This document shows positions 15,234-33,770 of a stretch of 64,000 nucleotides of DNA, in pieces. The translations under genes were made by a program, and so were the position numbers. The notes beneath the pieces were generated by a model. The model was given only the letters and a program-made list of their open reading frames with translations. It was not told where the DNA came from and ran no database searches. Where the stretch lies: contig CAZGJA010000042.1 in assembly GCA_964526695.1 (NCBI GenBank), forward strand, positions 21,145 to 85,144, read 5' to 3'. Position 1 is the first letter of the stretch, and each line of letters starts with the position of its first letter. The DNA comes from an uncultured Phycisphaeraceae bacterium (GTDB lineage: Bacteria; Planctomycetota; Phycisphaerae; UBA1845).

Positions 15234-15876
15234 CCTGGCTGTCACCTCCTCTCTGCAACCTGCGCAGCATGCCACTCCCTCCGGCTCGGCGCGCACAGGC
15301 GGCGTCGCGACGAAGGAAACGGAACTCAGCGTTACCGGGATGCAGGACCGCGAAGCGCGGTCGTTGGGAAAGAACAGCTTGCGGCGCGACCGTAGCACGT
15401 TTCGGGCGCACGGGTCAAGCGGCGCTGCCCGTCTGGTGCCGCCTGCCATGCCCACCTTCATCATAAGCGTGACGGGTCGCGTCTGCACGAACCGAGTCAC
15501 CTGCCCCCCCGGCAGTCCGCTGCGGTCCGCGATCGCCTGGGACACCTGGGCGGCAACCGCCAGCACCCGTTGCCGCCCCTGCACCGGGTCTGCCGTATAA
15601 AGCCGTCGTCGTCGGGTCCTCGCCCCGTCGAGGCCGTCAGGCCCTTGGGACCCGACGAGGACGGCTACGGCAGACCCAGTGCTGCGCCACCCTGAATCCA
15701 GTCCCCACCCACCCTGCCGGTAATGCCTGAGTCCGAGGGTTCCTCGATTCCACGCCGCTTTGCACCGGTCGCACGAGCGCCTCCGACCCGCCCCTGAGAA
15801 CAGGCTTGTTGCCTGGATTTTTCTTCGCGCCGCCATCGCGGATGGATAGAATGTAGCAACCGCCGTTCCCGGCGCG

Positions 15877-15974
15877 GCTCTTTGACAACCGCAGAGCGCC
15901 GTCCCCAAACGAGTTCAACCCCTTCGCGGGTTTACTGGCCCCCTCTCCTGCCGGGGCCTTACAAATTCCGCAGG
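15877..15974 (+). ncRNA. Structured leader element copy 3 (boxA-like site, hairpin, H-type pseudoknot)
   Basis: GCTCTTTGACAAC at 15877; AACCC-CTTCGC-GGGTT; stems GGCCCC 15937-42/GGGGCC 15953-58 and CCTGC 15947-51/GCAGG 15970-74; covaries with the copies at 29.0 and 29.6 kb. Confidence 0.65.
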
Positions 15975-16129
15975 AAACAAAGCGGCTCCATCGGAGTCGG
16001 TCGCGGGCCAAGCGGCTCCTGACTTCATTTACGAAGGGCAACATCCTATCCCATTAGCGCTCTCCTGCCCTTGAGCGAGAGAGCGGTGATGTAGGAGGAG
16101 GATGAGGCAACCTGTAAGTGAAATAGGAG

Positions 16130-16438
16130 ATGAAGCATATGCTTTGGTTATTGCGATTGCTACTCATAGGACCCGAGTCGTTCAAGGTTCCCCGACGCCA
16201 GCCGACTTCCGTCGATACGCCGGTGGGCGACCGTCAACCGACGGACGCCTTCACCAACGGACGGATGAAGCTGCGGGTGTGGAAGAACTACGACAAGCGT
16301 GGCGAAGTCTTTTACAACTTCGACCTGGTCCGACAGGTGGAGCATGGCCGGCACGCAAAGTCTTTCCAGTTGCAAGACCTGGAACCGGCAGTGGAATGCT
16401 TGAAGCGGGCGCTTGCCTGGGATCGAGACCGTAAGTAG
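16130..16438 (+). CDS. Divergent SSB/PC4-like protein, copy 3
   Basis: C-terminal half FTNGRMKLRVWKN..GEVFYNFDLVR...KSFQLQDL...ALAW aligns by eye to copies 1 and 2; start 16130 or 16139. Confidence 0.55.
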   Translation: MKHMLWLLRLLLIGPESFKVPRRQPTSVDTPVGDRQPTDAFTNGRMKLRVWKNYDKRGEVFYNFDLVRQVEHGRHAKSFQLQDLEPAVECLKRALAWDRDRK

Positions 16439-16445
16439 CCGGACT

Positions 16446-16476
16446 GTGTAGGAGCTAACCCTCCTACACTTTTTTT
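16446..16476 (+). terminator. Intrinsic terminator
   Basis: GTGTAGGAG-CTAACC-CTCCTACAC followed by T7. Confidence 0.85.
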
Positions 16477-16505
16477 ATTGCCATATCGGGCCATGGAACG
16501 CAAGC

Positions 16506-17738
16506 TCAGGGATAAAATAGCCCCATGTCGCGCCAGATCGGTGCAAGCTGCTGAAACTCCTCGAACAGCTTGCGGTACTGGTCCCAGTCCGCGTCGGTCT
16601 TGGGATAGGGTGTGGTCCACAAGGGTCGGTCGTTCTTCTGATACTGCTGGATGTAGGCAAATCCCTTGGCGCTCTTGGCTTTGCCACAACCCGCAGAGAC
16701 GAAGGTCTGGAGGTCGGTGGTGATGCCGAGCTTGACCAACGTGTTGTACGACGTCATTTCTGAGGGGCCGTCGATGAACATCATTCGCTGACTCGTCTCG
16801 CCGTGACCGAATCGCCAGCGTCCCTTGGCCAGGAAGGGCTGATACTTGGCCTGAACGGCCGGGTCTTCCGCCAGCTTGCGGTTGCGCGCCAGGTCGATTC
16901 CGGCTTTCTGTTGCTCCGCCTCGGCCTTGACCTTCTCGGCCTCAGCCTTGGCCAGCTCTTCGGTCTTCTTGTCGCGCTCGGCGCGGATCGCGGCCTCGAT
17001 CCGCTCGGTTCGCTCGCGGGCGAGCTTCTCATCGAAATCGGCCATCGCGTCCGACAGAGTGGTCGGCCCAGGCGCGTTCGGGGCTTCACGGGCGAGTAGC
17101 TCGATGGAGCGGCGGGTGTCGGCGTAGGCTTTAATCGCGGCCTTCAGCGCCCAATCTTCTCGGTCCAGGTGACCCGTCCAGTCCTGCGACGGCGCGTAGT
17201 CGCCCGTGTCTTCCTTGATGGCGGCCTCGACCGGCTCGAACAGCAGGCGTAGCTTCTCCTTGGACGCGGACACCTGGTCCGGCGTCCAAAGTGCTTCCTG
17301 TCGATAGAGCCCGGCGAACTTCTCGACTCGTTCGGGTTCGACGGCGATTCTGCGGCCGCGTTCGTCGGTGAGCAGCACGCGAACCTCTCGGTCCCATGCG
17401 GCGAGTTGTGCCTCCACCTCGGCCAGCGTCGAGCGGACGCCTTCGATTTTCTGCCGGGCCGCCTGGAGCTTCAGACGATTCAGGGTTCGGCGCTCGCGGT
17501 CCACGGATTCGACAATTGAGTTCTCATTCGGAAGGACGGTCGATTCGCCCGCGCTCGTTAGCCCCGACGTGCCTCCTGCATTGACGAGCGCAGATTCGGT
17601 CGGTTTGGCGATGGACATGAACGAGCGCACAGTGAGCACCACGATGCCTGTCCCCAAGACGATGCAGGCGAAGATCATGACGTGGAGTCCAGAAACGTAC
17701 TCGCCCAGAATGCGGCCAAATTGTTTATTGGGATTCAC
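16506..17738 (-). CDS. Membrane-anchored coiled-coil protein, last gene of the transfer operon
   Basis: Single N-terminal TM (VMIFACIVLGTGIVVLTV), long E/K/A-rich helices; ATGA overlap with the VirD4-like gene. Confidence 0.8.
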   Translation of the reverse strand: MNPNKQFGRILGEYVSGLHVMIFACIVLGTGIVVLTVRSFMSIAKPTESALVNAGGTSGLTSAGESTVLPNENSIVESVDRERRTLNRLKLQAARQKIEGVRSTLAEVEAQLAAWDREVRVLLTDERGRRIAVEPERVEKFAGLYRQEALWTPDQVSASKEKLRLLFEPVEAAIKEDTGDYAPSQDWTGHLDREDWALKAAIKAYADTRRSIELLAREAPNAPGPTTLSDAMADFDEKLARERTERIEAAIRAERDKKTEELAKAEAEKVKAEAEQQKAGIDLARNRKLAEDPAVQAKYQPFLAKGRWRFGHGETSQRMMFIDGPSEMTSYNTLVKLGITTDLQTFVSAGCGKAKSAKGFAYIQQYQKNDRPLWTTPYPKTDADWDQYRKLFEEFQQLAPIWRDMGLFYP

Positions 17739-20700
17739 TCCGGCGGCTCCTTACTTGCAAACAGGTTATCCAAACGCTCTTCCAAGTCATCCTTCTGTTC
17801 CGGCGGCGCCGGCGGTTTGGGCGCCGCAGGGGGTCTTGCGGAGGCGGCCGTACCCGCCGATGCCGCTGAAGCTCGGGGAGGCGGAATGGCAGCGGGGGCC
17901 GACTCGCGCGGCGGAACGTAGGTTCCGGGTTGTCGGCCGGGCCAGGATGCGGCCGAGCGCCGCTCATACTCGTCCTGGGAAATATGAAAGTCGGAAAACA
18001 CGGGGAACAGTCGTCCGCCAAACTGTGTCCAGCCGCGGCCGCGGGTAATCTGGACGAGGCTGTGCTGCTCGCGATCGCTGAAGCTGATCACATCGTCACG
18101 GCGGATGCGGGGGCCGTATTGTTCGCTGAGCGAGAAGCTCTCGCCGCCGATGCGGGAAGTGGTCCAGCCGTAGGTGGCGGAATACCGCGATTGCTCGCCG
18201 GAGCCGAGGCTGAGCATCTCCTGAGCCGCGAGGTCGCTGGCAGAGAATACCTGGCGCAGCCGCGTATTGGCCTGAACAGTGGGAATCAAGTTGATGTTCT
18301 CGTTCTTTTTCAGGTCGCTTAGGGTCTGGTTGGCTAGGATCACGGAGATTCCGTGCGAGCGCGCCTGGCGAAGCACGATCTCGATGTTTGTGGAGACTAC
18401 CTGCTGGAACTCATCGACGAAGACGTACACCTGGTGGTTGGACTTGCCGCGATGCACGGCCGCAGTTAGCAGCGAGTGCAGGGCGAGCTTCGCCGTTTCG
18501 CGTGCGGACGATTCCTCCAGCGGCGCGGAGAGATAAAAATACACGACGTGCGGTCGTCGCACGACCGCGGACATGTCAATTTGATAGCGGATTACTTCGG
18601 GGTTCGGGGCGGATTCGGCGGTGATGTTGAGCGCGTGATTCGCAGCGAGCAGATCCACAACCGTGTACAGGTGCGTTCCTTCCTCGTGTTGGCGTTTTTC
18701 AATGTTGAGTTCCTTCCGCCGCGGGCGTAGATCAACGGCGAAGTATCTGCTAAGGTCGCGGAACGAACTGATGCGTTGGTCCTCCCGCAGCACCTTGACG
18801 AGCGTGTCGCGGTGGATGGCCGAAAAGTAAGAGGGTCCGAATCCCTCCCCGTAGTCGAGGCCCAGGGATTGCAGGAGGATAGAGGCCTTTTGTTGAATTG
18901 TCAGCTCCCTAAAATGACCTTGCAAGAAGGGGTTGAAGGCAAAGGTGTGTCTGCCTTGGTGGTTGGTATACCACTTGAAGCGAAGCATTTGTTTCTTGCG
19001 CTTGACCGCGCCGTTCACGTGATCGACGCGAATCCGCGCGGCTTCAAAGAGGGCGGCGTCGCCCTTGAGGTCAATGATCACGACCGACGTGTGTGGCAAC
19101 CCGATGAGTTGGGCGGCGAGGGGGGCGATTCCCAGGGCGGTCTTGCCCGACCCCGTGTCTCCGGTGATGTGGGCGTGTTCGTGCAGGATGCGTCGGTCCA
19201 TGAGAATGGGATAGTCCACCACTGGGTTGCAACCAAAAAAGAGGTGGTCGCATTCACGCACTGGGCGGCCTTTTGAATCCATGACTCGGAAGCGGGACTG
19301 GCGGAGCCGGTCCACGTAAGCTTCCCAGCGAGATAGCTGAGGAACCCGCTGATACGCGCCCGGCGCGCGAGCAGTGCCTTCGAGCGTGCGCGCGTGATGA
19401 AGCAAGCGGCGGGCCCCCAAGGCGAAGGAGGTGGAGAGAAGGAAAACGCCGATGGCGGCGTAGCAGGCAAACACCGAGGCCGTCATGCTGAAGAAGAAAA
19501 ACGTCTCGCCGCGGGTCATCCCCTGGAGCGTGGAGAGCAGGTAGCCTTCGTAAGACTGCAATCGGACGGCTGCAGCGCGACGACGCGCGTTCCGTTCCTC
19601 TGTCGCCAGCCGGGCCTTGACATATGCCTCCCGCTGCGATTGGGGGATATGCTTGAGTACCTGCTCGGGAACGCGGACGTTGGATTGGGAACTCGGGCGA
19701 TTGGCGGGGTTATCGAACTCCTCGCTCATCACCCACGACCGCGCTCCGGCGTCAATCCACGGGCCGTTGCCGTAGAACAGAACGGGGATCGGGAAGTAAG
19801 CGCAGACCGGAACGAGCGCCAAGGCAAGCATGAGGGAAATGTAATAGGTCGTGATGAAGCGCCGGCGCATCGATCCGGCGGGGCTCTGGAACACGCCTGG
19901 CGCAACCGTCTGCTTGTAGTTGTAGGAAAACCATGAGGACCATGCGTCATAGACAATTCGGCAAACCTCGATCCAGGTCGCATCCGGATACAGCCGGTGT
20001 GCCTGATGCGCGCCGTAGATGAGCAAGGCGGTGATGTAGACCAGCAGACCCGCCAAGCCACTGAAGAATGGGCCTGGTACCAGCATGGCGGTGAGGGTCG
20101 CCGCCAGCAGGGCGACCAGCACGAATGCCAGCGCGACGTAGTAGTGCTGGAGTTCGCGTCGCTCGGGTGCGAGCAGTGCGAGGGAAGGGTCATCAACTGG
20201 GGGAGCAGCGGGAGCCTCGGCAGCAGCGACTTCACGTTTGGGAGCGCCGGCCGCGGCGCGAAGCGACGCCGACGGAGAGGCGAACGCTCGCAACGTGCCG
20301 CGAAGCGTGGCATGCATCCACACGGAGCGCCAACGCATGCGCGTGGGTCGGTCGAGTTGGGGATGGGCGTGCATCCACATGGCCCGGTGGGTGACGACGG
20401 AGTGGGCGAGTTGGATGGCAAGGGCGCCCGCGATGAGCCAAAGGACGACGTGAAGCCCCGCCGTAGTCACGACGCTGAGCAACCACAGGGCCGGGCCGAG
20501 AATGCTCCAGCCAATAAGTGCCGCTCGGGGGACGCCGTTGAGATACAGGGATACTACGTGCAACGTCATGAGCAAGGCGACGACGGAGAGGAAGAGTGAG
20601 GTGGCGGTGCTTTCGGCGACCGCTCGAACGGCGAAGGCCACGAGGGCTCCGACGCCGCCCGTGGCCAGGAAGAACCGCAGCGTGGCATGACGCGCTTCCT

Positions 20701-20806
20701 TGTCGGTGGCGTCGGTCGTGCGGTAGTCCAGCTCCATCCCGGCCGTCGGTGGGAGTAGGTCCGGAGCGAGTCCGTCATACGGGTTTTCGTGTTCAGGCGC
20801 CAGCAC
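17735..20806 (-). CDS. VirD4/TraG/TraD-like coupling ATPase with large multi-TM N-terminus
   Basis: Walker A GDTGSGKT, IIDLKGD, Walker B VFVDEFQ, QARSHGISVILANQTLSDL; many hydrophobic segments in the first about 460 aa; likely GTG start 20806 with GGAG RBS. Confidence 0.88.
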   Translation of the reverse strand: MLAPEHENPYDGLAPDLLPPTAGMELDYRTTDATDKEARHATLRFFLATGGVGALVAFAVRAVAESTATSLFLSVVALLMTLHVVSLYLNGVPRAALIGWSILGPALWLLSVVTTAGLHVVLWLIAGALAIQLAHSVVTHRAMWMHAHPQLDRPTRMRWRSVWMHATLRGTLRAFASPSASLRAAAGAPKREVAAAEAPAAPPVDDPSLALLAPERRELQHYYVALAFVLVALLAATLTAMLVPGPFFSGLAGLLVYITALLIYGAHQAHRLYPDATWIEVCRIVYDAWSSWFSYNYKQTVAPGVFQSPAGSMRRRFITTYYISLMLALALVPVCAYFPIPVLFYGNGPWIDAGARSWVMSEEFDNPANRPSSQSNVRVPEQVLKHIPQSQREAYVKARLATEERNARRRAAAVRLQSYEGYLLSTLQGMTRGETFFFFSMTASVFACYAAIGVFLLSTSFALGARRLLHHARTLEGTARAPGAYQRVPQLSRWEAYVDRLRQSRFRVMDSKGRPVRECDHLFFGCNPVVDYPILMDRRILHEHAHITGDTGSGKTALGIAPLAAQLIGLPHTSVVIIDLKGDAALFEAARIRVDHVNGAVKRKKQMLRFKWYTNHQGRHTFAFNPFLQGHFRELTIQQKASILLQSLGLDYGEGFGPSYFSAIHRDTLVKVLREDQRISSFRDLSRYFAVDLRPRRKELNIEKRQHEEGTHLYTVVDLLAANHALNITAESAPNPEVIRYQIDMSAVVRRPHVVYFYLSAPLEESSARETAKLALHSLLTAAVHRGKSNHQVYVFVDEFQQVVSTNIEIVLRQARSHGISVILANQTLSDLKKNENINLIPTVQANTRLRQVFSASDLAAQEMLSLGSGEQSRYSATYGWTTSRIGGESFSLSEQYGPRIRRDDVISFSDREQHSLVQITRGRGWTQFGGRLFPVFSDFHISQDEYERRSAASWPGRQPGTYVPPRESAPAAIPPPRASAASAGTAASARPPAAPKPPAPPEQKDDLEERLDNLFASKEPPE

Positions 20807-21518
20807 GGCGTTGCTCCGCGGGGAGCAGCTCCCCGATCTCCTGGACAAAGGCGTAGCGGAACTGCACCTCCTTGTGCAAGTCCTCCACGTAGCGCGCGAT
20901 CTGCTTGATCCGCGCTTCGCGGATGGTCACGATGGTGATGACGAAGCGGCCCTTGCGGATGATGCTGTGTTTCCAGCTTTCGCGATGAAGCCGCTCGCTG
21001 ATGAGCGTGCGCACCCGGTCCCGGATGCGTCGTAGCGGGCGCCGCGTATCGATCAACAGGTAGCCCAGCCGCCCGCGCTCACCGTCCTTGTCGAGATAAT
21101 ACTCCTCCGGGATTTGCCTGCCGATGACCAACTCGGGGAACTTCTCCCGGAACTGTCGAGGGCTGAGCTTCGGGTGAATCTGCTCGCCCAGGCAGCAGAA
21201 AGCGAGCATGCCGTACACCTGGGCCAGGCGAACCGGCGACCGAAACCCCTCGCTTCCCGCCTCAAGTTGGAACTCGGTCACGGCGGCATGGGTCGGGTAG
21301 TAGTAGTTCAGGCTGCCGTAAAGCGGGGCGTCGCCCAGGTAGCCCGCCTCCCGCATCCGCCGCACCCAACTCTTGGCGGCGTGGATGGTCTCGCCGGGCC
21401 AGTAGACGCGGCGGACGGCCTCATAGGTCGTCATGCGGAAGCAGCCGACGTGGTCGCGGAGTATCTCGGCGTCACGGTCGGTCAGGCGCACCTTGCGGGA
21501 TTTCGCTTCATCTACCAT
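20793..21518 (-). CDS. Replic_Relax-like protein 2 (degenerate nuclease motifs)
   Basis: RLTDRDAEIL winged-helix start, ..WVRRMREAGYL; lacks the HDL and PDA motifs of its neighbour. Confidence 0.6.
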   Translation of the reverse strand: MVDEAKSRKVRLTDRDAEILRDHVGCFRMTTYEAVRRVYWPGETIHAAKSWVRRMREAGYLGDAPLYGSLNYYYPTHAAVTEFQLEAGSEGFRSPVRLAQVYGMLAFCCLGEQIHPKLSPRQFREKFPELVIGRQIPEEYYLDKDGERGRLGYLLIDTRRPLRRIRDRVRTLISERLHRESWKHSIIRKGRFVITIVTIREARIKQIARYVEDLHKEVQFRYAFVQEIGELLPAEQRRAGA

Positions 21519-22153
21519 AGCTCGTAGCGCCTCCCGCGCCGGGCACAGTCCTCGTGGAAGGCCTGGACCGTCTCCTGCGAATACTTCCCGCCAAGTTCGA
21601 CCACCAGCTCAGGGCGGCCGTCACTGAATTCGAGGACGGCGTCCGGGTCCTTCAGCTTGTAACCGGCCTTGGGCCTCAGGTCCTCGCCAATCCAGGCGCC
21701 AGCGTCGTCAGGCCGTTCCCGCCGGAAAAAGAGATAGACCGCGGCCAGGTTCAAGTCGTGAGTCGCGTAAAGCGTATCGAGCCGCTTGGGGCGAACCGGC
21801 CCGCCGAATTCGTCCAGCGTTTGCCGGGTGGCGGTGAACACGCTGAGCCTCGTCGGCGGCCGGTCCACCTCCCAACGCTGGGCTAGGCTCCGGGCAATAG
21901 CAGCGCAATCCGGGTCGGGCTCGCCTGGCGACCAGATGTGAATCGGGGCGGTCAGCTCAAGCATCCGGGAAACGTAGACGTGCGTGGCGTGCAACCAGCC
22001 GGCGCCGGAAAGCTCGGTCAGGCGTCGCCGCGAGATCGCCTGGGCGTTGGAAGCCGTTGGCCACCAGGCACCAGCAAGCTGTTCAAGCGAGAACACTCGA
22101 ACCCGGCAGGCCAGGGCCTCCAGAATCTCGTTGTCGCGGTCGGTTCGCTGCAT
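21512..22153 (-). CDS. Replication-relaxation (Replic_Relax-like) protein 1
   Basis: RTDRDNEIL, RRRLTEL..AGWL, THDLNLAAVY, PDAVL...VVELGG PD-(D/E)xK-like core. Confidence 0.75.
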   Translation of the reverse strand: MQRTDRDNEILEALACRVRVFSLEQLAGAWWPTASNAQAISRRRLTELSGAGWLHATHVYVSRMLELTAPIHIWSPGEPDPDCAAIARSLAQRWEVDRPPTRLSVFTATRQTLDEFGGPVRPKRLDTLYATHDLNLAAVYLFFRRERPDDAGAWIGEDLRPKAGYKLKDPDAVLEFSDGRPELVVELGGKYSQETVQAFHEDCARRGRRYELW

Positions 22154-22708
22154 GGCTGAGCTTCGTCAAAACCGGCCTCAATTCTATCGCCGCCGGCGGC
22201 CCGAACCAATCGGGGCGCGCCGGTCCTCCGGGCGCGCAACCCTTGATGTTGGAGTTTATGCTGAACTCGATGCATCCCCTTGAATGGGCGTGAGTTATGT
22301 CCGAATGATGCTCCTGGCCGATGACCCAACAAGATGCCGAAGGGTGTGCCATGACCTGAGCCATGTGGGAACCGGCGTGGGGTGGTGCCCATGCTCGAAT
22401 CTCCCAAGTCACCGACTGGCGAAGCGGCCGCACCAGTGAACCTACACTCCGGCGCCGGAATTCGAGCATGGGCTGAAAAGACTCTTCCAGCTCGACTGGC
22501 GGCGGGACTGCGGCGGCGGGGTGTCGAGGCGTCAGCCGGGGCCGGGGCGGCGGGTGCGTCGGTCAGCAAAAACACGGGTGAGCGGAATCTCCCGCCGAAG
22601 GCGGGGGGCGGCCTGCGCGGGGCCGGTGGGGGAATTCCAGCGAACTCCGCTGCCGCGATTCGCGGGTAGCCGGGTCGGAAATTGGGCCCGGCTCCGGCTT
22701 TCGTTCCG

Positions 22709-23452
22709 TCAGGCAGCGGCTCGTCGCACTCCGGCGTTGCGGAACACGACGCAGTACTCGTGCCGGATGGGCACTTCCTCCATTTTGCCGTACGTTTTCC
22801 GGTCGGACCGGCAGTTGTGCTGCAGCTTGATGATGACCGAAGCCAGCTTGCCGAGTTGGGTCTCCAGGTTCAGCACGTCGCGGACCATCGGGTAGTACCG
22901 CCCGTGCTTGCGGATGTCGCCGACCAGAACGGCCAGCCTACCGCCGGGGGCCAACGCGGCCGCACAGCGGCAAAGGCAAACGCGGAGCCGTTCGACGAAT
23001 GCGTCGTAGTCCTCGCAACTGCTCAGGTCGGCGGGGTTGTCGCTGTAGCGCACGATGTTCCAGTACGGCGGGTGAATCCAAACCAGGTCGTACTCGCCCG
23101 GCAGGTCGTGGGCATGGAGGTTGAACCCGGCGTGCAGGTCGCTCCCCCAGTACTCAATCTGCGTGCCAGCCTTGCGGTTGAGCCACTCGACGACATGGCG
23201 GGTGGTTCCCGAGCCTTCCATGGGGTCGGCTACCCGCCTGGCTCCGTAGCGAACCACGAGGCCCACGAAGAGCCGGCCGTCGCAGTTACCCGGGAATTTC
23301 GGGTCGCCCCAGAGATTGCATCGCTGCGGAAAGGAAACGACGGAGCCCATGCTCTCGGCATGTTCCTTCACGCGGGTCTGTATCGGTGTTTGTTTCAGTG
23401 TCTCGGATGTCATTGTGTTGGATTGCTTGCCATTCATTGCTTCTGTTTCCAT
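22709..23452 (-). CDS. Orphan DNA amino-methyltransferase (N4C/N6A)
   Basis: DPMEGSGTT SAM-binding motif, HPPYW catalytic motif, VLVGDIRK, HEYCVVF; GAGG RBS at ATG 23452. Confidence 0.88.
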   Translation of the reverse strand: METEAMNGKQSNTMTSETLKQTPIQTRVKEHAESMGSVVSFPQRCNLWGDPKFPGNCDGRLFVGLVVRYGARRVADPMEGSGTTRHVVEWLNRKAGTQIEYWGSDLHAGFNLHAHDLPGEYDLVWIHPPYWNIVRYSDNPADLSSCEDYDAFVERLRVCLCRCAAALAPGGRLAVLVGDIRKHGRYYPMVRDVLNLETQLGKLASVIIKLQHNCRSDRKTYGKMEEVPIRHEYCVVFRNAGVRRAAA

Positions 23453-23511
23453 TTGCCTCATTTGGTTGTGAAGGCCGAGCGGCACAAACGCCGCTCGACC
23501 GGTGTTATTTG

Positions 23512-24165
23512 TCAGCGTTTGTTTTGATGGGAACACTTCGGCTTCTGCATTTGATACCGGAGAGAATCCTCGCCCAAGTCGATGAGGCGATGCAATCGCC
23601 ACCGGATTTCAATCTCATAGCTCAGACCCAGTTCCTGGTTGAGCTCCGCGCGCCCGTCAAAGACGAGGCTGTCGAAGTCTCGCCAGCCGCCGAACCAGAT
23701 TTCCTGGAACGCACTTTGGACTTGGGCAGCCACACACGGACAATGCCCTTGCGGTTGCTCTTTCTGGTTTTCGCTGGTGTCTGTGCTCATGGTTTCTCTC
23801 ACCTCCTTGACACCGGGCGGCTCGAACGCCTCTTGGATGGCTTGGTCAGTAATTCCAAGCATGCAGTCGAATTCGTCACGTTCATCGTCACCCTCCCACG
23901 CGTCGAGCACGTGTAGAGCAGTACCCATCTGGACGTAGGCGAAAAACACGGGATACCAGCTGAATCGGCCGCAGTAGAGCCGGACCCGGTTCTTGCGATT
24001 CCACCAAGAACGTCTCTCCGGCTGGTGCAGCCGAGGGAGTTGGTCGTGCAGCTCACCGATAGCGGCTATGCCATCGAGCGGACTGAAAAGGTCATCGAGA
24101 CGGTTCGTAACGCTATGGTCCATGATGACGATGAACTCGGAGGGGGATTGTTTGGTGTGTGTCAT
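23512..24165 (-). CDS. Hypothetical protein (possible internal start at 23790)
   Basis: AAGGAG RBS at ATG 24165; in-frame AGGAGGT-ATG at 23790. Confidence 0.6.
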   Translation of the reverse strand: MTHTKQSPSEFIVIMDHSVTNRLDDLFSPLDGIAAIGELHDQLPRLHQPERRSWWNRKNRVRLYCGRFSWYPVFFAYVQMGTALHVLDAWEGDDERDEFDCMLGITDQAIQEAFEPPGVKEVRETMSTDTSENQKEQPQGHCPCVAAQVQSAFQEIWFGGWRDFDSLVFDGRAELNQELGLSYEIEIRWRLHRLIDLGEDSLRYQMQKPKCSHQNKR

Positions 24166-24212
24166 GGTCTTCTCCTTTTGTTTGAACGCTGGCGGCTGCA
24201 CCGCCAGCACGT

Positions 24213-24638
24213 TCATTTGAAAAACTGTGCTAGTCGCGCTCGCCAGTGAGAGCGCCAGCGAATCGGCCTAACAAGGTCGGACCAGCCCAGCTCCTTTGCC
24301 ACCCGGTCCGCGATTTGGACCGTCGCGGCTTCGCCTAGGTGTTTCCAGATTTCGTCAATGCGTTCATCCGCGTAACGCATTTCTCTTGCTTCGTCTTCCG
24401 TTTGCTGCCTAGTGATGAGTTGAAACCGGCTGATGCTTAATCCGACGCGGTACCAGTATGTGGCGAGCTGGCCCATCTCATGACGGGTGCATACGAAAGC
24501 CGGGCACGGCTGGGCCTCAAGGCCGCTTGTTTTGTCAAACGGGTCATGTTTGCCACGTCGCTTCCAAGGGGGCAGCTGCAGCTTCTCGAACGCGTCGGCG
24601 CATATCATCGCCCATTGGGTTACTTCCTTTTTCCTCAT
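24213..24638 (-). CDS. Hypothetical protein
   Basis: GGAGAG RBS before MRKKEVTQW; co-directional with backbone genes. Confidence 0.6.
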   Translation of the reverse strand: MRKKEVTQWAMICADAFEKLQLPPWKRRGKHDPFDKTSGLEAQPCPAFVCTRHEMGQLATYWYRVGLSISRFQLITRQQTEDEAREMRYADERIDEIWKHLGEAATVQIADRVAKELGWSDLVRPIRWRSHWRARLAQFFK

Positions 24639-24750
24639 GTCAGTCTCTCCTCGATGTGAAGACCGTCGGACACAATCCCGCCCGGCGGTCGCGTTACCCG
24701 AGCGTCCGCGTTTGCCCGTACGCCCGAACCAAAGTGGGCCCCAGCCCACT

Positions 24751-24804
24751 TTGAAAGGCTGCTGTCAACTTCACGAACCCTCCCGGTTGACAGCAGCCTT
24801 TCAA
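24751..24804. repeat. Perfect 19-bp inverted repeat with adjacent 8-bp hairpin
   Basis: TTGAAAGGCTGCTGTCAAC (24751-69)/GTTGACAGCAGCCTTTCAA (24786-804); AAAGTGGG/CCCACTTT hairpin at 24731-52. Confidence 0.9.
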
Positions 24805-25085
24805 CAACAAGCGAGCGGCGGCGTTGCCGGCGGTGGCGTGGTGCCGGCAGGCAAAAGGCATGACAGGACGAAGGGGCGGGGCAAGCGGCGGGCGGGGAGA
24901 CCTGGCGGGCCTTTTGGGGCGGCGGGGGCCGGCGACGGTGCCGCTCTCCTCAGCCGGGGAGCGTGCGAGCATGCGAGCTCGCTGGTGGAGTGGCGCGGCG
25001 AATTCCGCACGACTTGCCTCGCTGTCGAAACCCGCACACCAATGGCGAGAAACGTCACCAGACTCGTCGAGTAGGTGCCTGAGTC

Positions 25086-25114
25086 TTGACAATGTAGGGC
25101 GTTTGCCCTATAGT
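25086..25114 (+). promoter_or_regulatory. sigma70-type promoter with operator palindrome in the spacer
   Basis: TTGACA-17 nt-TATAGT; spacer holds TAGGGC-GTTT-GCCCTA. Confidence 0.8.
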
Positions 25115-25163
25115 TGTAGTCACTGAGTCGATGAACGGCTCGCGATTACGGCAATGGAGGGAT

Positions 25164-25496
25164 ATGAAAAATGCACACGACACCGAGCGATATCAAGGCT
25201 GGGCCAATTACGAAACCTGGGCGGTGAGCCTCTGGCTGGATAATGAGGAAAGCACCTATCGGTATTGGCGAGACGAGGTGAAGCGTCATCGAAAGGCGGC
25301 AAGCACTTCGCCGCAGGTGCGGGGCGGGACCTGGACAGCTCAGGAAGCTGCTCGGTTCAACCTTGCGGACCAACTCAAGAAGGAAGTGACCGACGCGTCG
25401 CCGCTGCACCAACCAAGCTTGTACACGGATTTGTTGCTCGCTTCCCTCTCGGGGGTCGATTGGTTGGAGATTGTCGATAACTGGATGGCCGAATGA
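25164..25496 (+). CDS. Phage/ICE-type hypothetical protein (GWxNYETWAVxLWLDN family)
   Basis: GGAGG RBS; YQGWANYETWAVSLWLDNE and VDWLEI motifs. Confidence 0.75.
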   Translation: MKNAHDTERYQGWANYETWAVSLWLDNEESTYRYWRDEVKRHRKAASTSPQVRGGTWTAQEAARFNLADQLKKEVTDASPLHQPSLYTDLLLASLSGVDWLEIVDNWMAE

Positions 25497-25756
25497 CCAC
25501 AAAGCAAAACCGGGGCGGCGACGCCCCCCGCGTCCTTTCGCTGGCGAACCTCTTCCGAAGGGCGGCAGCCGACAGCGGGCTAAGCGTGTACCGCATCGCC
25601 AAGGAAACGGGGATTGACCAGTCCACCCTCAACAAGTTCCTGGTCGGCGCGCGGGATAATCTCCGCCTGGACGTGGCGGACCGTTTGTTTCGATTCTTTT
25701 TTCGTCCGCCGCGGCCGAAGTCGCGGGTGGAACTGCTTCGGAAAGAACGGGCGTGA
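25493..25756 (+). CDS. XRE/Cro-like HTH regulator
   Basis: GLSVYRIAKETGIDQSTLNKFLVG; ATGA overlap. Confidence 0.85.
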   Translation: MTTKQNRGGDAPRVLSLANLFRRAAADSGLSVYRIAKETGIDQSTLNKFLVGARDNLRLDVADRLFRFFFRPPRPKSRVELLRKERA

Positions 25757-25799
25757 ACATGCCCATGTATCTCGAAGGCGTTTGCGTGAGGTGGTGTGG

Positions 25800-26177
25800 T
25801 CAGTCGCCGCCGTCGGCTGGTGAAACGCCGTTGCGAGCCAGCCATTCCCGCAAGGCAGCCTCAACAATCGCCTGTTGCGTGTAGGGCTGGACGTAGTCGA
25901 GACCGCGCAGGGCAGCCGCTCGGCGTAGCATCCGCACCGCGTCGGTTGTCAGCCGGAGCGTGATGGATTGAAGCGGCCGCGGAGCCGGCCGTGAGGTCGA
26001 AGCTGGGAGGTGGCTTCTCAGCCGGTGCTTGGGTTCGGCTCGCGGAGTCGGCGACGCAACCGAAGGCTGCGGTGTGGAACTTCCCTCGGCAGCGGTTTCT
26101 GCCGGCTCAGGCGACTTCAAAAAGTTCCGTTGTTCGCTCGTCAGGGCGGTAAGCGTGCTGCGTCGTGTCGATTGCAT
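25800..26177 (-). CDS. ParA partner, ribbon-helix-helix-like (type Ib)
   Basis: Disordered N-terminus then SITLRLTTDAVRMLRRAA...QQAIVEAALREWL; directly after parA. Confidence 0.65.
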   Translation of the reverse strand: MQSTRRSTLTALTSEQRNFLKSPEPAETAAEGSSTPQPSVASPTPRAEPKHRLRSHLPASTSRPAPRPLQSITLRLTTDAVRMLRRAAALRGLDYVQPYTQQAIVEAALREWLARNGVSPADGGD

Positions 26178-26805
26178 GTTGGTGAATCTCCGTCAAAAGC
26201 GTCGTCATTTCGTTCGCGGCCGTCCTCGCCCCTCGGCCCATGCGCCAAACGACTGAGCGTTGGCCCGGTGCATCGGCGACGGCTTCCCTCATTTTCAAAG
26301 AGGCCCGGCAGACCGGCAACCCGAGTGCCGCTGCGGCGGCGCGGGACTCCCGTGTCAAATGAAACCGTGCATCTCGCAACCGCGTCAGTGCGATGATTCC
26401 ACTGGGTTGTGACTTCTTCCGGATGGCCTGGGCGCTGCGGAGCATTCGCACCGTAGCGGCGGTTGACTCCAGTTCTGGCAGGCTGACGCCACAGGGAATG
26501 ACGGCCAAGTGCGCCACCAGTAGCAACGCGCGCGTCGTCTCGGAGAGGTTGGCCGGCCCGTCGGCGACGATACACTCCGCCGTTCCGGTCAGCCGGTCAA
26601 CGGCCTCAATCAGATCGTCGGCCCGCTGCTCGACGATGATGTTCACTTCCGGCGCCGCAACGCGGAGCCAGTTCGAGGATGACCCCTGTCCGTCGGCATC
26701 GATCAGCGCGACGCCGTGCCCGGCCTCGTGAAGCCATGCCGCGAGGTGGACGGCCAGCGTGGTTTTTCCTACTCCGCCCTTTTGGTTGACGCACGCGATC
26801 AGCAT
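26107..26805 (-). CDS. parA: Plasmid-type ParA ATPase
   Basis: MLIACVNQKGGVGKTT, LIDADGQGS, IVADGPA, AVIPCG. Confidence 0.92.
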   Translation of the reverse strand: MLIACVNQKGGVGKTTLAVHLAAWLHEAGHGVALIDADGQGSSSNWLRVAAPEVNIIVEQRADDLIEAVDRLTGTAECIVADGPANLSETTRALLLVAHLAVIPCGVSLPELESTAATVRMLRSAQAIRKKSQPSGIIALTRLRDARFHLTRESRAAAAALGLPVCRASLKMREAVADAPGQRSVVWRMGRGARTAANEMTTLLTEIHQHAIDTTQHAYRPDERTTELFEVA

Positions 26806-27200
26806 GCGACCACCTTCGCACGATCGGCCGCTCGCCGGCAAGCGTGTTTTCACTCCCGCGCGCTGACGTGCAAGCATGTTGGCATGCCAGCAAGCCGGCG
26901 CCCAAGAATCCCCTTGCGCTATGCATCCAGTGTCGTATTCTGGGAATGGGAAAGAAGCGGATGGCGTGGAGCGCCGTCCAACGAATAACAGAGGAGGAAT
27001 CGCGGAAATGTAGCAGAACGCGCCCTGCCAGAGGGAACCAACGCTGACACGTCAAGCGTGCAGCGTGGCGGTTTTGGACCAGACACCCGAAGCCTACCAC
27101 GACTGACACCCATCTCGTCAATGGCAATCTTCTGCCACGGAACCGAAGCCTTGCCTTCGACCCGGGATCTGCGCACTCCCACTCACAAGAGGGACCGAGC

Positions 27201-28595
27201 ATGAACTCGATAAGACAATCGACCGCCCTGGCGACGGCGATGAGCCGGATGCCGGGCGGCTATCGTCGCATGGACGTGAATCATCTTTTGGCCGTCTGGC
27301 ACGCCTACCGCACGGAAAAGCGCATTCGTTTCGTGGACTTCCGCGTCTACCTGGCGCTGCACGAGATGGCCGAGCGGCGTCGAGCCGGACGCCGCAGCAA
27401 AGCGCGTCGACGGAAATCGACGCTTCCACCAAAGCGGAACCTGAGCGGAATCGTGTTGGAATGTGCCCGATTGCTGCGGGTGCGAGACTCCCGCGTCGCG
27501 TCCGGCGCCATACAGCGGCTGGCGCGTGCGGGGTTGATTTCGATTTCAGAGCATTCGATTCGACTCAAGGGGCAAGGACCCGCATCGCTAGAGCAAGACT
27601 CAAGGACCGGTTTGGCCGGTCGGAATGTGTCGCGCCGGACGATGGCAGTTCCGCGCCGAGTGCTTCGGCATCTGGCTGGCGGAGAGACCGTCAGTCGCAC
27701 CGCGACCATGCTGGGACACTTGCTACGCTGCGTATTCCATCATCGCGGTTCAGGCTGGAACTCGGTGGGGTCGTGCTCGATTCGGTTTGTGGCCGAACTG
27801 TTCGGCGTGGACGCCCGAAGCGTCAAACGCGCGCGTCGGAGGCTGGTGGACGAGGGTTGGCTGAAGCCGGAGTCGGCGGACCATTGGCACGTGCAGGCGC
27901 AGGGCGCTCGGGTGAAGGTCAACCTATCCTGGTTCCCCGGTCCGCAGGAACCACTTCTAGACGTCAACGCGGCCGGAATGTCACCCCGGCCACCCGGTTT
28001 CGCGTGCCCGTTGTCACCCCCAGGATCAAAACGCACGCTTCCCCTGGTACTTCAGAACCACACACCCGCGTTTCCGCGGGGTGTTGGTGTTTGGACCGAT
28101 GGGCCGGCTGAGGATCCACCGCGATTGGCGGATGTCCGTCTCTGCGACCTTGTGGAAGCGGATCGCCTGCAACTGCTCTGCCAGGAAGCGTGCGCGCGCG
28201 GCTGGATTCGGTCCAGCGAGCACGACACGTTGCGCGTGTTCTCCGCCGCTGCACACGCTCGAAGGGTCGGGCGCACCAACCCGTGTGGCTTGTTCGTAGT
28301 AGTCCTGCGGCGCGGGTTGTGGATGTACCTGAGCAACGATGACGATGACACCGGGCGGGCTCTGTTCCGATCGCTGAAAGACCCACGCCTGGTCGGTCCT
28401 GCGAATCGTCCGCGGGGTGCCGCACACTCGCGCGAACTCGGTCGCGAACCTGAGGAAATCCGCGGGGTAAACAACCTTGCGGCGTCCCTCGCGAGGGCAT
28501 TCACAATGCCGGGAAGCACTGCACGACGAACCGAAAGGGGAGCGCGACCTGTGTTCGCCGTAGCTCGGCTCCGTCGCGAATTGGCTTCGCGATGA
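27201..28595 (+). CDS. Putative replication initiator (two wHTH-like regions)
   Basis: DFRVYLALHEM; SIRFVAELFGVDARSVKRARRRLVDEGWL HTH; divergent from parA. The ORF is well supported; its function is inferred. Confidence 0.5.
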   Translation: MNSIRQSTALATAMSRMPGGYRRMDVNHLLAVWHAYRTEKRIRFVDFRVYLALHEMAERRRAGRRSKARRRKSTLPPKRNLSGIVLECARLLRVRDSRVASGAIQRLARAGLISISEHSIRLKGQGPASLEQDSRTGLAGRNVSRRTMAVPRRVLRHLAGGETVSRTATMLGHLLRCVFHHRGSGWNSVGSCSIRFVAELFGVDARSVKRARRRLVDEGWLKPESADHWHVQAQGARVKVNLSWFPGPQEPLLDVNAAGMSPRPPGFACPLSPPGSKRTLPLVLQNHTPAFPRGVGVWTDGPAEDPPRLADVRLCDLVEADRLQLLCQEACARGWIRSSEHDTLRVFSAAAHARRVGRTNPCGLFVVVLRRGLWMYLSNDDDDTGRALFRSLKDPRLVGPANRPRGAAHSRELGREPEEIRGVNNLAASLARAFTMPGSTARRTERGARPVFAVARLRRELASR

Positions 28596-28635
28596 AGCCG
28601 CGGCCGCGCTTGCGCTTCCGCATCGTTGATGGTAT

Positions 28636-28676
28636 AAAAAAAGGCCCCTTGGGGGGCTAATGAGACCTCCCAAGGG
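28636..28676 (-). terminator. Intrinsic terminator of unit 1
   Basis: Minus strand: CCCTTGGGAGG..CCCCCCAAGGGG-CC-T7. Confidence 0.8.
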
Positions 28677-28698
28677 AACCTGCGTTTGCGAGTTCGAG

Positions 28699-28881
28699 TT
28701 ACAGTCCACCTGTTCTGATTCGCTCTAAGAGCACCAGACCCACGGCGAACCCGATCCCGATCAGAAACGCGGAGAACCAAAACAGCACGAACACGTGTGT
28801 GATTCTCCAAATGATCAGGTTCAGCACTGACTTCACCACCGATTTCTCGTTCCTCTGCATACGCTTTCTGTCTCTTTTCAT
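28699..28881 (-). CDS. 60-aa single-TM glycine-zipper peptide A
   Basis: GAGAGG RBS; basic N-terminus, F39-G42-G44-G48-L51 helix; ungapped homologue of 29256-29438. Confidence 0.7.
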   Translation of the reverse strand: MKRDRKRMQRNEKSVVKSVLNLIIWRITHVFVLFWFSAFLIGIGFAVGLVLLERIRTGGL

Positions 28882-29043
28882 ACGTCCTCTCTCAAGGTTT
28901 TTTCAGTTAATAAGAAAACCAGAAAAACCGTTCATCAACCTTCGCAGATGAGCTGCGTGAGCAGCCCATCGGCCAAGTGGTAAACAGAGAGGTCAGACAT
29001 CGACGTCGTCAGAAGAGGCAAAGTCCCTTGCTGGTTGCGCAAA

Positions 29044-29122
29044 CGCGCCGGTCGAATGTTTGAGAGCCCGGACCGGTAAGGGGCTCATGCAAACCCACGA
29101 AGGGGTTGCGCCGTGACGCGAC
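29044..29122 (-). ncRNA. Structured leader element copy 1 (hairpin, H-type pseudoknot)
   Basis: Sense: GCAACCCC-UUCG-UGGGUUUGC then GAGCCC/GGGCUC crossed by CCGGUC/GACCGG; 73 of 75 nt identical to copy 2. Confidence 0.7.
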
Positions 29123-29202
29123 GGACGGCTCGTATTTGGCCTGGCCGCCGCGAAATCTCGCCGAGAAGCAACGCTGCAGGCTGCGATGCCTCGTGTTTCC
29201 GC

Positions 29203-29240
29203 AAAAGTGCCCTTGGGGGGCTAATGGGACCCCCCAAGGG
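29203..29240 (-). terminator. Intrinsic terminator of unit 2
   Basis: Minus strand: CCCTTGGGGGG-TCCCATTAG-CCCCCCAAGGG-CAC-T4; homologous to the unit 1 terminator. Confidence 0.7.
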
Positions 29241-29255
29241 AATTGCGTTGTCGGT

Positions 29256-29438
29256 CTACATGCAACCGTTCCAGATGGTTACTGCGAGCAGTATCCCTGT
29301 CGTAAGTCCAAGACCCGCTGTGAAGCCGGCAGCGAAAATCTTGAAGAAATTCCTGACGGCTTCCTCCACGGCGAATTGCACTTCGAGAGGCACCCGATCT
29401 GTAGTCAAACGCTTCATGTCATCCATTATGTTTCTCAT
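29256..29438 (-). CDS. 60-aa single-TM glycine-zipper peptide B
   Basis: GGAG RBS before ATG 29438 gives exactly 60 aa; M8,R10,V16,F31,F39,G42,G44,G48,L51,I55,G58 identical to peptide A. Confidence 0.7.
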   Translation of the reverse strand: MRNIMDDMKRLTTDRVPLEVQFAVEEAVRNFFKIFAAGFTAGLGLTTGILLAVTIWNGCM

Positions 29439-29593
29439 AATACGCTCCATTTGTTTCAAGTTAATAAACAACCATCAACCGCTCATCCACCTCACAGATA
29501 GGCTGCAAAATGCAGCCCATCGGCCAAGCGATGAACATGGAGCACAGACAGTGGCGTGAACGATGGTCAGGTGACCTCATGGTGCAGACCGCA

Positions 29594-29723
29594 ACGCCCG
29601 GTCGAATGTTTGAGAGCCCGGACCGGTGAGGGGCTCATGCAAACCCACGAAGGGGTTGCTCCGTGACGCGACTCGGAGGCCGGCTTCCGCCGCCCGGTCG
29701 CGGTATTTCGTTGACAAAGAGCA
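29594..29723 (-). ncRNA. Structured leader element copy 2 with upstream boxA-like site
   Basis: Same motif 550 nt from copy 1; TGCTCTTTGTCAAC at 29723-29710. Confidence 0.7.
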
Positions 29724-31771: not shown

Positions 31772-31894
31772 ACTCGATTCTCGCTCGATCCCAGCACCGG
31801 TGCAACGAAGAGCACGCCGTGCCGAGGGAAAACGAGGTAAGCCGAATGAGCGGACTTCCGCGAGAGTCCGTCGGAGTGCATGCGATCGCGAATC

Positions 31895-33756: not shown

Positions 33757-33770
33757 GTCAAACTCCTCAA

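Follow-up and report, generated by a model that had tools for sequence, protein, structure and literature searches.

The window analyzed here, 64,000 nucleotides of DNA from an uncultured Phycisphaeraceae bacterium (GTDB lineage Bacteria; Planctomycetota; Phycisphaerae; UBA1845; GenBank assembly GCA_964526695.1, contig CAZGJA010000042.1, positions 21,145 to 85,144 of the forward strand), contains a ~40-kb region (~5-46 kb) with the gene content of an integrative/conjugative element. This region encodes a ParB-like protein (5417-7261), a DUF932 protein (13555-14580), a TraD/VirD4-like (T4CP-like) ATPase of 1037 amino acids (aa; 17735-20848), a DNA methylase (22709-23602), ParA (26107-26877), a helix-turn-helix (HTH)/Rep-like protein of 464 aa (27201-28595) and a tyrosine recombinase (44874-45803), and it is flanked by efflux-pump and other apparently chromosomal genes. 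Within it, the leaders of three short open reading frames (ORFs) each contain a hairpin followed by an H-type pseudoknot. Comparative sequence analysis confirms that the three copies are a genuine structured RNA motif with covariation support. It is a leader motif of Planctomycetota mobile elements that is found neither in Rfam 15 nor in the searchable literature.

Three copies of a hairpin and pseudoknot in one element

An 18-mer, CAACCCCTTCGYGGGTTT, that marks the hairpin matches the window exactly three times, at 15916-15933 (+), 29091-29108 (-) and 29641-29658 (-), compared to ~0.15 matches expected by chance. These are the three places where a preliminary description of this DNA had proposed a hairpin and H-type pseudoknot, and we refer to the corresponding units as A, B and C. 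After each hairpin (P1), the order by direct reading is S1-L1-S2-L2-S1'-L3-S2', where S1 and S2 are the two pseudoknot stems and L1 to L3 the loops. In copy A (+), positions 15937-15975 read GGCCCC-CUC-UCCUGC-C-GGGGCC-UUACAAAUUCC-GCAGGA, with S1 at 15937-15942:15953-15958, S2 at 15946-15951:15970-15975 and an A-rich L3 at 15959-15969. Copies B and C (-), at 29086-29048 and 29636-29598, read GAGCCC-CU(U/C)A-CCGGUC-C-GGGCUC-UCAAACAUUC-GACCGG. Their P1 hairpins and pseudoknots together span 29048..29107 in unit B (P1 29107-29092; S1 29086-29081:29069-29064; S2 29076-29071:29053-29048) and 29598..29657 in unit C (P1 29657-29642; S1 29636-29631:29619-29614; S2 29626-29621:29603-29598). The preliminary description had the copy numbering swapped, as it is the plus-strand copy that carries GGCCCC/CCUGC. 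The CCUGC stem that it described in that copy is present, but S2 is really 6 bp, so that L1 has 3 nucleotides (nt) and not 4.

Each copy precedes a short ORF on a conjugative-type element, as had been proposed, and the distance from pseudoknot to start codon is 163 nt in A, 166 nt in B and 159 nt in C, close to the ~155-165 nt first estimated. A longer ORF that overlaps copy C (29635-30777, -) was rejected as spurious, since its product is Arg/Pro/Gly-rich and its G+C content at third codon positions (GC3) is not raised. Each copy therefore lies within an intergenic leader on the strand of its own ORF.

The motif belongs to a narrow family

A scan with the hairpin 18-mer covered 185,579 species genomes and returned 84 loci, which we numbered with the prefix L. 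Only two of these, both from Planctomycetota (L027 and L034), are true relatives, and the rest are chance matches; L036, for example, has the hairpin 18-mer and no pseudoknot. Further copies were reached by three routes: homologues of ORF A, homologues of the Rep-like protein, and a pattern scan that combined the hairpin with boxA, the upstream sequence described below. Altogether the family comprises ~20 copies in ~10 related Planctomycetota conjugative/integrative elements. The relatives come from SRR7415549 and SRR7415548 (L085, L086), SRR5083363 (L087, two copies), AMX-MBFR-47 (L027 and L114, the latter identical to L106), GCA_975303745.1 (L100, two copies), a JGI contig (L102, partial), Phycisphaerae OFTM209 (L113, two copies), a Phycisphaeraceae metagenome-assembled genome (MAG; L116, three tandem copies) and Planctomycetota NC_groundwater_1039 (L120, two copies). 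Scans of JGI metagenomes and IMG/VR with two patterns gave no copies, returning either nothing or chance matches in AT-rich coding DNA. Nor did the loci of distant Gemmataceae and Isosphaera relatives of the T4CP-like gene (L088-L099), or of distant relatives of the Rep-like gene (L107-L110), contain the motif. The family thus appears to be narrow and, as far as sampled, confined to elements of this kind in Planctomycetota.

Rfam 15 gave no family match on the motif at gathering thresholds across the whole window, which agrees with the earlier impression that the motif was unrecognised. At the same level, L113, L115, L116 and L120 contain only a tRNA and a group II intron elsewhere; the intron domain (RF00029, 61.8 bits) is at 2205-2303 (-) of L116, ~4.4 kb upstream of its three-cassette array. 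Families considered include STAXI, preQ1, SAM-II/V, guanidine-III, fluoride, pistol, twister and HDV-like. Even at E<=10 the searches around the copies returned only noise, with nothing on copies B, C and L087b and STAXI (RF01728) not among the matches. The best overlap was CcsR1 (RF02791) at 15930-15991 (+), with 17.4 bits against a gathering threshold of 65.3 and an E-value of 0.17. We regard it as noise, as the C-rich loop of the S1 hairpin of copy A, CUCUCCUGCC, resembles the anti-Shine-Dalgarno loop CCUCCUCCC of the cuckoo RNAs.

Both pseudoknot stems covary

Because MAFFT misaligned the stems, we built a structural alignment of 16 copies by hand, using N as the gap character. Each row was verified as a literal substring of its own locus, and MAFFT left the finished alignment unchanged. 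Paired cells make up 92.4% of this alignment, compared to 74.0 +/- 1.6% in shuffles and at most 61% when the partners are slid, and they reach 94.8% within each of S1 and S2. Changes on both sides occur in 11 of the 12 pseudoknot pairs, so the claim that both stems covary, first made from the three window copies, holds over further homologues. There are 48 doubly changed cells compared to 14.9 in shuffles, cell counts that overstate the number of independent events because the copies share ancestry. The covariation score is 0.521 (0.176 in shuffles, none of 500 reaching 0.521; at most 0.14 in slid controls). Nine intact S1/S2 variants are represented, in addition to two degenerate copies, L116b and L120b.

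The 16 copies also share the geometry of a classical H-type pseudoknot: the order of elements is the same, S1 and S2 have 5-6 bp, L1 (1-4 nt) and L2 (0-2 nt) are short, and an L3 of 10-14 nt spans S1. P1 lies 4-7 nt from the pseudoknot. Its stem, AACCC(C)/(G)GGGUU, is conserved in sequence across the 16 aligned copies, with only three departures (UACCCC, GACCCC and AAUCC), two of which keep wobble pairs. The P1 loop is free in sequence and in length (4-6 nt), with UUCG, CUCGU, CUAGU, CUCAU, UCUG, GUCA, GUUG, GCAA, CAAG and UUUG all represented. Some N padding columns aside, the invariant or near-invariant columns are paired positions only. The sole tendency among unpaired regions is that L3 is A-rich, a feature of pseudoknots in which loop 3 packs into the S1 minor groove. 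The alignment contains 11 G.U cells, which on the other strand would be A.C mismatches.

A covariance model built from this alignment, as the preliminary description had suggested for its three copies, separates true copies (22.8-41.2 bits; 35.9 bits for unit B and 34.3 bits for unit C) from 81 control loci of other genomes that have the same hairpin 18-mer by chance (at most 19.6 bits); the degenerate L120b scores 16.7 bits. A generic hairpin-plus-pseudoknot descriptor was discarded, as it gave ~45 background matches in 250 kb of G-C-rich DNA and therefore has no use unless anchored on AACCC/GGGTT. For the nine best-formed of 14 copies computed, the pseudoknot energy comes to approximately -24 to -29 kcal/mol. 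In three variants (window A, L027 and window B/C), the pseudoknot has a nested alternative that differs from it by no more than a few kcal/mol; this fold was set aside as a conserved feature because the other variants do not have it.

The motif sits in long leaders, with a boxA-matching box ahead of promoter-proximal copies

From 5' to 3', the leaders consist of a -10-like box, a boxA at a predicted ~+12 to +40, a spacer of 11-51 nt, P1 and the pseudoknot. These are followed by 72-220 nt that hold a long hairpin (P3), an A/U-rich stretch and a Shine-Dalgarno sequence, then the small ORF and usually a terminator. In the window the leaders are ~280-320 nt long.

Unit A (+) has a TAGAAT box by direct reading (15847..15852), the boxA GCUCUUUGACAA (15877..15888), P1 (AACCC-CUUCGC-GGGUU, 15917..15932) and the pseudoknot (15937..15975). 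Next come P3 (16043..16103), which is in the minimum-free-energy fold and has a G/U- and purine-rich 3' arm, an A-type ORF of 99 aa with a hydrophobic N-terminus (16139..16438, GC3 0.72), and an intrinsic terminator (16446..16479) with a 9-bp stem and then TTTTTTTATT. Unit C (-) has a TACAAT box by direct reading (29770..29775), the boxA GCUCUUUGUCAA (29711..29722), the motif, P3 (29481..29536), a 60-aa ORF with a C-terminal hydrophobic helix (29256..29438), and an 11-bp hairpin followed by only four U (29201..29240), a weak terminator left unflagged by the terminator scan. The GTGCATACAAT of its -10 region is also present in both L100 units, and L034 has TTGCATACAAT. In unit B (-), a decayed boxA remnant, UGCUUCUCGGCGAG (29157..29170), aligns with the boxA of unit C and has no -10-like box upstream. 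After the motif, this unit continues with P3 (28930..28985), a B-type ORF of 60 aa (28699..28881) with a basic N-terminus, one hydrophobic helix and the C-terminus ...RIRTGGL, and an intrinsic terminator (28634..28676) supported by the terminator scan and the sequence. The intrinsic terminators of the preliminary description are thus clear for units A and B and not for unit C.

P3, with its G/U-rich 3' arm, covaries in both B-type and A-type leaders. In the five B-type leaders, whose P3 is homologous to that of unit C, seven of 15 consensus pairs have compensatory changes; the equivalent hairpins of L027 and L087, read by eye, differ in sequence from that of unit A. The Shine-Dalgarno is free in the consensus fold of the B-type leaders. 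Several further features of the leaders were considered and dropped. An attenuator made of P3 and a U-tract occurs only in some B-type leaders. Pairing of a CGAAGG downstream of the motif with the P1 loop is better explained by the local P3 hairpin. The 10-mer CUCUCCUGCC of the S1-hairpin loop of copy A recurs in the P3 loop at ~16063-16072, and an anti-Shine-Dalgarno role for this S2 strand was rejected since the other variants do not have the repeat.

The 3' part of P3 shows other peculiarities. In unit A, the 3' arm holds a strong GGAGGAGG immediately followed by an AUG, which opens a 110-codon ORF (16102-16434, +) that overlaps all of ORF A in another frame; its GC3 of 0.37 argues against coding. 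In the B- and C-type leaders, an SD-like GAGG(U) and an AUG in the same arm create upstream ORFs of 3-10 codons, which L106 does not have. Most leaders contain a GCGGUGGUGGUGUGG-type G/U-rich tract between pseudoknot and Shine-Dalgarno, corresponding to the P3 3' arm (window 16075-16100; L027 ~4150-4175; L120 ~4985-5010; L116 ~7395-7410), which could be a two-tier G-quadruplex or a boxC-type element.

Each promoter-proximal copy lies 11-51 nt downstream of the conserved box GCUCUUUG(A/U)CAA. The full 12-mer is GCUCUUUGACAA in unit A, L027, L085, L087a, L113a, L120a and L120b, GCUCUUUGUCAA in unit C, both L100 units, L106 and L116a, and GUUCUUUCUCAA in L087b. For reference, we fetched 120 loci with PLA46, the target of a Planctomycetes 16S probe, and inspected the 116 with at least 250 nt of upstream leader. 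In these 116 leaders from Planctomycetota and the wider Planctomycetes-Verrucomicrobia-Chlamydiae (PVC) group, the box found most often 90-300 nt upstream of 16S position 46 is G[CT]TCTTTGACAA (26 loci), followed by G[CT]TCTTTGAAAA (15 loci). The box of unit A, GCTCTTTGACAA, is identical to the commonest rRNA-leader box, and that of unit C, GCTCTTTGTCAA, differs from it by one mismatch. Across the 64-kb window, GYTCTTTGWCAA has exact matches only in these two units. Outside the element, a one-mismatch 12-mer, GCTCTTTGAGAA, at 53494-53505 (+) fits the 0.7 such matches expected by chance. The 116 rRNA leaders contain boxA and no hairpin-pseudoknot.

Each of the 11 promoter-proximal leaders examined has a TAnAAT box, located 18-47 nt ahead of its boxA. 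We estimate the chance of such a box at ~2% per leader in DNA of ~60% G+C, and regard it as a putative promoter element. A sigma-70 scan found no full -35/-10 promoter in the window leaders. Reading the TTGACA inside boxA as a -35 hexamer was rejected, as no conserved -10 follows at 16-18 nt.

Two other leaders deserve mention here. A Phycisphaera contig (L034, 300-1235) has a C-type leader that includes a -10 box, P3 and an intact hairpin-pseudoknot; its boxA is decayed and a small ORF is lacking. Beyond P3 the leader gives way to an unrelated, G-C-rich ORF of 189 aa, and the locus is probably a remnant or a chimeric contig. In an unrelated phylum, one Clostridia MAG carries three near-identical copies of a different element (L111 ~99-173, L112 951-1027, L119 ~1583-1658), a repeated boxA-like leader that consists of GCTCTTTGTCAATAGTTG, ~40 A-rich nt, GCGGGGAACCCCTGACGTGGGTTCCCCGGC and then a terminator-like hairpin.

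Small-protein cassettes behind the leaders

Each leader heads a cassette with an ORF of ~50-105 aa and usually a terminator, which resembles the phage 'morons', self-contained promoter-ORF-terminator insertions between core genes. The A-type products (~100 aa, hydrophobic N-terminus) are a conserved family found in six elements with 32-88% identity, and homologues of ORF A stand behind the same leader in five other elements. The B-type products (50-70 aa, basic N-terminus, one hydrophobic helix, C-terminus ...R(I/V)(R/E)(T/-)GGL) occur in five elements, with homologues of ORF B behind the same leader in L100, L102, L106 and L113. The remaining products are unrelated small proteins, mostly with a hydrophobic helix. 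Four small ORFs had no match in PHROGs and NCBIfam, ORF A had none in Pfam and PDB sequences, and ORFs A, B and C had none in PADLOC.

Cassette order varies, with C then B in the window and B then C-like in L100. Where cassettes stand in tandem (window C-B, L113 a-b and L116 a-b-c), a promoter and an intact boxA are present in the first cassette only. In later cassettes boxA is decayed or absent, as in UGCUUCUCGGCGAG of unit B and GCCUUUGGAAAC of L113b, but the hairpin-pseudoknot is intact, or nearly so, in each cassette. In L116c it begins ~7 nt past the preceding stop codon.

The B- and C-type cassettes also share a near-identical terminator hairpin across elements, CCCUUGGG(A/G)GGUC(U/C)CAUU(A/U)GCCCCCCAAGGG, at 28634-28676 (-) and 29201-29240 (-) of the window, ~11440-11480 and ~12615-12655 of L100 and ~3775-3812 of L102, a degree of conservation far beyond what a generic terminator needs. 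Defence-type cargo lies beside the B and C cassettes at 30761-35471 (-), 7826-10417 (-), 38561-39658 (+) and 43293-44318 (-). It includes a Schlafen/AlbA_2 protein with weak matches to pAgo-associated domains, an AAA ATPase (DolB/PDC-M37B-like), a fused JAB-ThiF (E1-E2-like) protein, a Ser/Thr kinase with strong PD-T4-6 matches (E ~1e-67), a radical-SAM protein with a weak viperin match and an AbiEi-like regulator.

A tentative role for the leader and its motif

The boxA RNA recruits NusB/NusE, and the Nus complex suppresses Rho-dependent termination on rRNA (PMC4807359, PMC5725501, PMC7862264). The consensus, GYTCTTTAANA, is gamma-proteobacterial, and boxA is also active in non-rRNA 5' UTRs (PMC5725501) and occurs upstream of CRISPR arrays (PMC7862264). 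As this biology is established, we expect it to extend to the present leaders. Transcription would start at the TAnAAT-type promoter, and boxA at ~+12 to +40 would load NusB/NusE onto the elongation complex, which would become Rho-resistant over the long untranslated leader and the tandem cassettes. The element would borrow the host boxA in this way, while intrinsic terminators would still delimit the units. An exact rRNA boxA on a conjugative-type element, outside rRNA operons, suggests that the element borrows host Nus machinery for small accessory genes.

The tandem arrays are the most informative observation on mechanism. A device that modifies RNA polymerase once per transcript is expected to decay in downstream cassettes, as boxA does. 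Because these cassettes retain the hairpin-pseudoknot while boxA decays, we favor a role for it that is exerted per cistron and post-transcriptionally. Since the stems are stable and G-C rich and only the A-rich L3 is conserved among unpaired regions, we picture the motif not as a ligand switch but as a module that folds constitutively at the cassette's 5' boundary. In every case the motif and its downstream ORF share a strand, regardless of the direction in which the ORF faces. This, together with the 11 G.U cells, points to action as sense-strand RNA. The module would bind a trans-acting protein, or would block or define ribonuclease processing, and so affect the stability or translation of the cassette mRNA. 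We tentatively propose that it is such a per-cistron module, protein-binding or ribonuclease-blocking/processing, that sets the fate of each cassette's mRNA, a reading that is plausible although we stop short of holding it probable.

Several points weigh against this proposal and the structure behind it. The alignment was hand-fitted around the proposed fold, its copies come from only ~10 related elements, and the P1 stem is conserved in sequence without covariation, which would fit a DNA operator or a recombination core too. A scan of the element ORFs turned up no RNA-binding domain, leaving no trans-acting protein identified. Additionally, the promoter-proximal motif lies ~40-110 nt from the inferred start site and not at the 5' end, so a protective role would need prior processing. 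The start sites, the loading of Nus factors and the sensitivity to Rho are predictions.

In a second explanation, the hairpin-pseudoknot partners boxA in a nut- or put-like system of processive antitermination, in which RNA polymerase modified with Nus factors, and possibly with an element-encoded N-like protein, would ignore Rho-dependent and perhaps intrinsic terminators. The presence of a boxA 11-51 nt upstream of every promoter-proximal copy recalls the boxA-boxB arrangement of lambda nut, and it lends indirect support to the antiterminator idea of the preliminary description, which had not noticed the boxA. Furthermore, downstream cassettes depend on read-through of weak terminators, such as the four U of unit C and a similar one in L113a, and antitermination systems are known from conjugative elements of Gram-positive bacteria (PMC8191782, PMC11658703). 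Immediately 3' of the pseudoknot, L113b and L120b have C-rich, G-poor tracts that resemble Rho-loading sites (per 60 nt, 26 C and 0 G in L113 6810-6900, and 26 C and 4 G in L120 1765-1830). However, most leaders are near the background C/G ratio, and such tracts were rejected as a general feature. Most units end in strong, long-stem terminators. The motif is kept where boxA, needed once per transcript only, is decayed or absent, and the P1 loop varies even within one element (GUCA, GUUG and GCAA in L116), which is unlike boxB-type loop recognition. The rRNA leaders of Planctomycetota likewise have boxA without the hairpin-pseudoknot. We therefore regard this explanation as unlikely.

A riboswitch-like element had also been suggested, which could take the form of a small aptamer of the preQ1-I/SAM-II/guanidine-III type that senses a metabolite and controls the downstream ORF. 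The 5'-leader architecture, a hairpin with an A-rich tail pairing into its loop, and the alternative nested fold in window A, L027 and window B/C all fit such an aptamer. That fold, however, is not conserved in the other variants, Rfam gave no riboswitch match at E<=10, and the alignment offers no conserved unpaired nucleotide beyond the A-rich L3 that could form a pocket, whereas its 12 pseudoknot pairs are mostly G-C in long stems. The start codon is 72-220 nt away, the Shine-Dalgarno is free and no terminator abuts the motif, which leaves no adjacent or overlapping expression platform. What follows the leaders is a heterogeneous set of genes for unrelated, small membrane-type proteins of a mobile element, and no metabolic theme connects them. 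A riboswitch is thus very improbable.

We give about as little credence to a type I toxin-antitoxin-like arrangement, in which the cassettes encode small hydrophobic toxins and the structured leader keeps the mRNA inert or is the target of an antisense RNA. The B- and C-type products, at 50-70 aa with a single hydrophobic helix, are of the right kind, the leaders are long and structured, and each element has several paralogues in moron-like units. Yet the same motif precedes other kinds of ORF, namely the A-type (~100 aa) and that of L087b (103 aa, no hydrophobic stretch seen), and the Shine-Dalgarno is unsequestered in the consensus fold. Scans of the window leaders revealed no antisense promoter or terminator, and the products gave no toxin or defence model matches.

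Least probable of all is a role at the DNA level, either as a single-stranded DNA (ssDNA) structure in conjugative transfer, an option raised in the preliminary description (a Frpo-like promoter, a priming signal or a STAXI-like element), or as a double-stranded operator or recombination core on AACCC-N6-GGGTT. In its favor, the host is of conjugative type and encodes a T4CP-like ATPase, ParA, a DUF932 protein and a DNA methylase, P1 is conserved in sequence with nearly constant half-site spacing, and related elements arrange their cassettes in different orders. Against it, the copies lie on both element strands, always oriented as their own ORF, and no one transferred strand could hold every copy in the orientation that folds. 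The combination of two interleaved, covarying helices, G.U pairs and an A-rich L3 is characteristic of RNA, the motif lies 3' of a -10-like box and boxA, and no -35/-10 hexamers occur within a long stem. STAXI is absent from the Rfam matches, no integron-type integrase is adjacent, and the homology between cassettes spans the whole leader (boxA, P1, pseudoknot and P3), not a core site alone.

Returning to the per-cistron module, the motif would, if that role holds, be a natural RNA insulator or stabiliser. If it acts in a nut- or put-like manner instead, both the phylum and the class of element would be new for RNA-mediated processive antitermination. A bolder idea, which we consider doubtful, is that boxA and the hairpin-pseudoknot together form an RNA-based antitermination/anti-Rho device, protein-free like put or with a new N-like partner, or that the pseudoknot is an exonuclease-resistant, cap-like structure that defines exchangeable cassettes; either would be the first such mechanism in Planctomycetota and a new natural insulator part. 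Cis-regulatory RNAs described from Planctomycetota are very few, and to our knowledge their mobile elements have yielded none. At ~60 nt and with covariation support, the motif deserves an Rfam entry and provides a testable handle on expression in these elements.

Comparison with known systems

Pseudoknots are found in several other mobile-element and leader RNAs. STAXI (RF01728, PMC2864571) likewise consists of repeated pseudoknots on mobile DNA near DNA-handling genes, and UUCG-type loops occur in the commonest variant. In contrast, STAXI forms tandem repeats within a single element in Enterobacteriales, while the present motif has one copy per ORF, another architecture and a home in Planctomycetota. 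The preQ1-I, SAM-II and guanidine-III riboswitches share the hairpin loop that pairs with a 3' tail and the A-rich strand along S1, but the present motif has longer G-C stems and lacks a match to their models, pocket nucleotides and an adjacent expression platform.

In the repZ/repA leaders of IncI, IncB and IncL/M plasmids, a pseudoknot between a hairpin loop and a sequence adjacent to the ribosome binding site is opposed by an antisense RNA. These too are leader RNA pseudoknots on conjugative plasmids that control a downstream ORF, whereas the present pseudoknot is local, far from the Shine-Dalgarno and unlinked to a rep gene. The motif also departs from Frpo-type ssDNA promoters and single-strand initiation (ssi) sites, where a long imperfect hairpin rebuilds -35 and -10 hexamers and copies keep one orientation on the transferred strand, as its copies lie on both strands, it is ~60 nt long and its stems contain no promoter hexamers. 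Type III ToxI-like antitoxins are head-to-tail repeats of a ~36-nt pseudoknot RNA just 5' of an endoribonuclease toxin gene, and the motif differs from them in that the copies are ~550 nt apart, each with its own ORF, and no ToxN-like match was found; nor does it have the makeup of an attC site.

The HK022 put sites consist of two stem-loops and no boxA. Like lambda nut and HK022 put, the present leaders would place a small structured RNA close to the promoter on a mobile element, after a boxA as in nut, and the ~60-nt compact fold is comparable to put. Unlike lambda nut, the spacing from boxA is 11-51 nt and not ~8, beyond the ~10 nt within which boxB lies, the loop is not conserved, and no N-like protein family was detected among the element ORFs. 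Moreover, each cistron has its own copy of the present structure in front of it, even where boxA is absent. The boxA leaders of rRNA operons, the suhB 5' UTR and CRISPR arrays have boxA soon after the promoter of a long, poorly translated transcript, as do the leaders described here, whose boxA is identical to that of rRNA leaders in the same phylum and would be expected to load NusB/NusE and protect from Rho (PMC5725501, PMC4807359, PMC7862264). The present leaders differ in that they stand on a mobile element before small protein-coding cassettes and continue into a hairpin-pseudoknot. By analogy, the closest functional counterparts would be the boxA leaders outside rRNA operons and the RNA elements of mobile-element antitermination systems.

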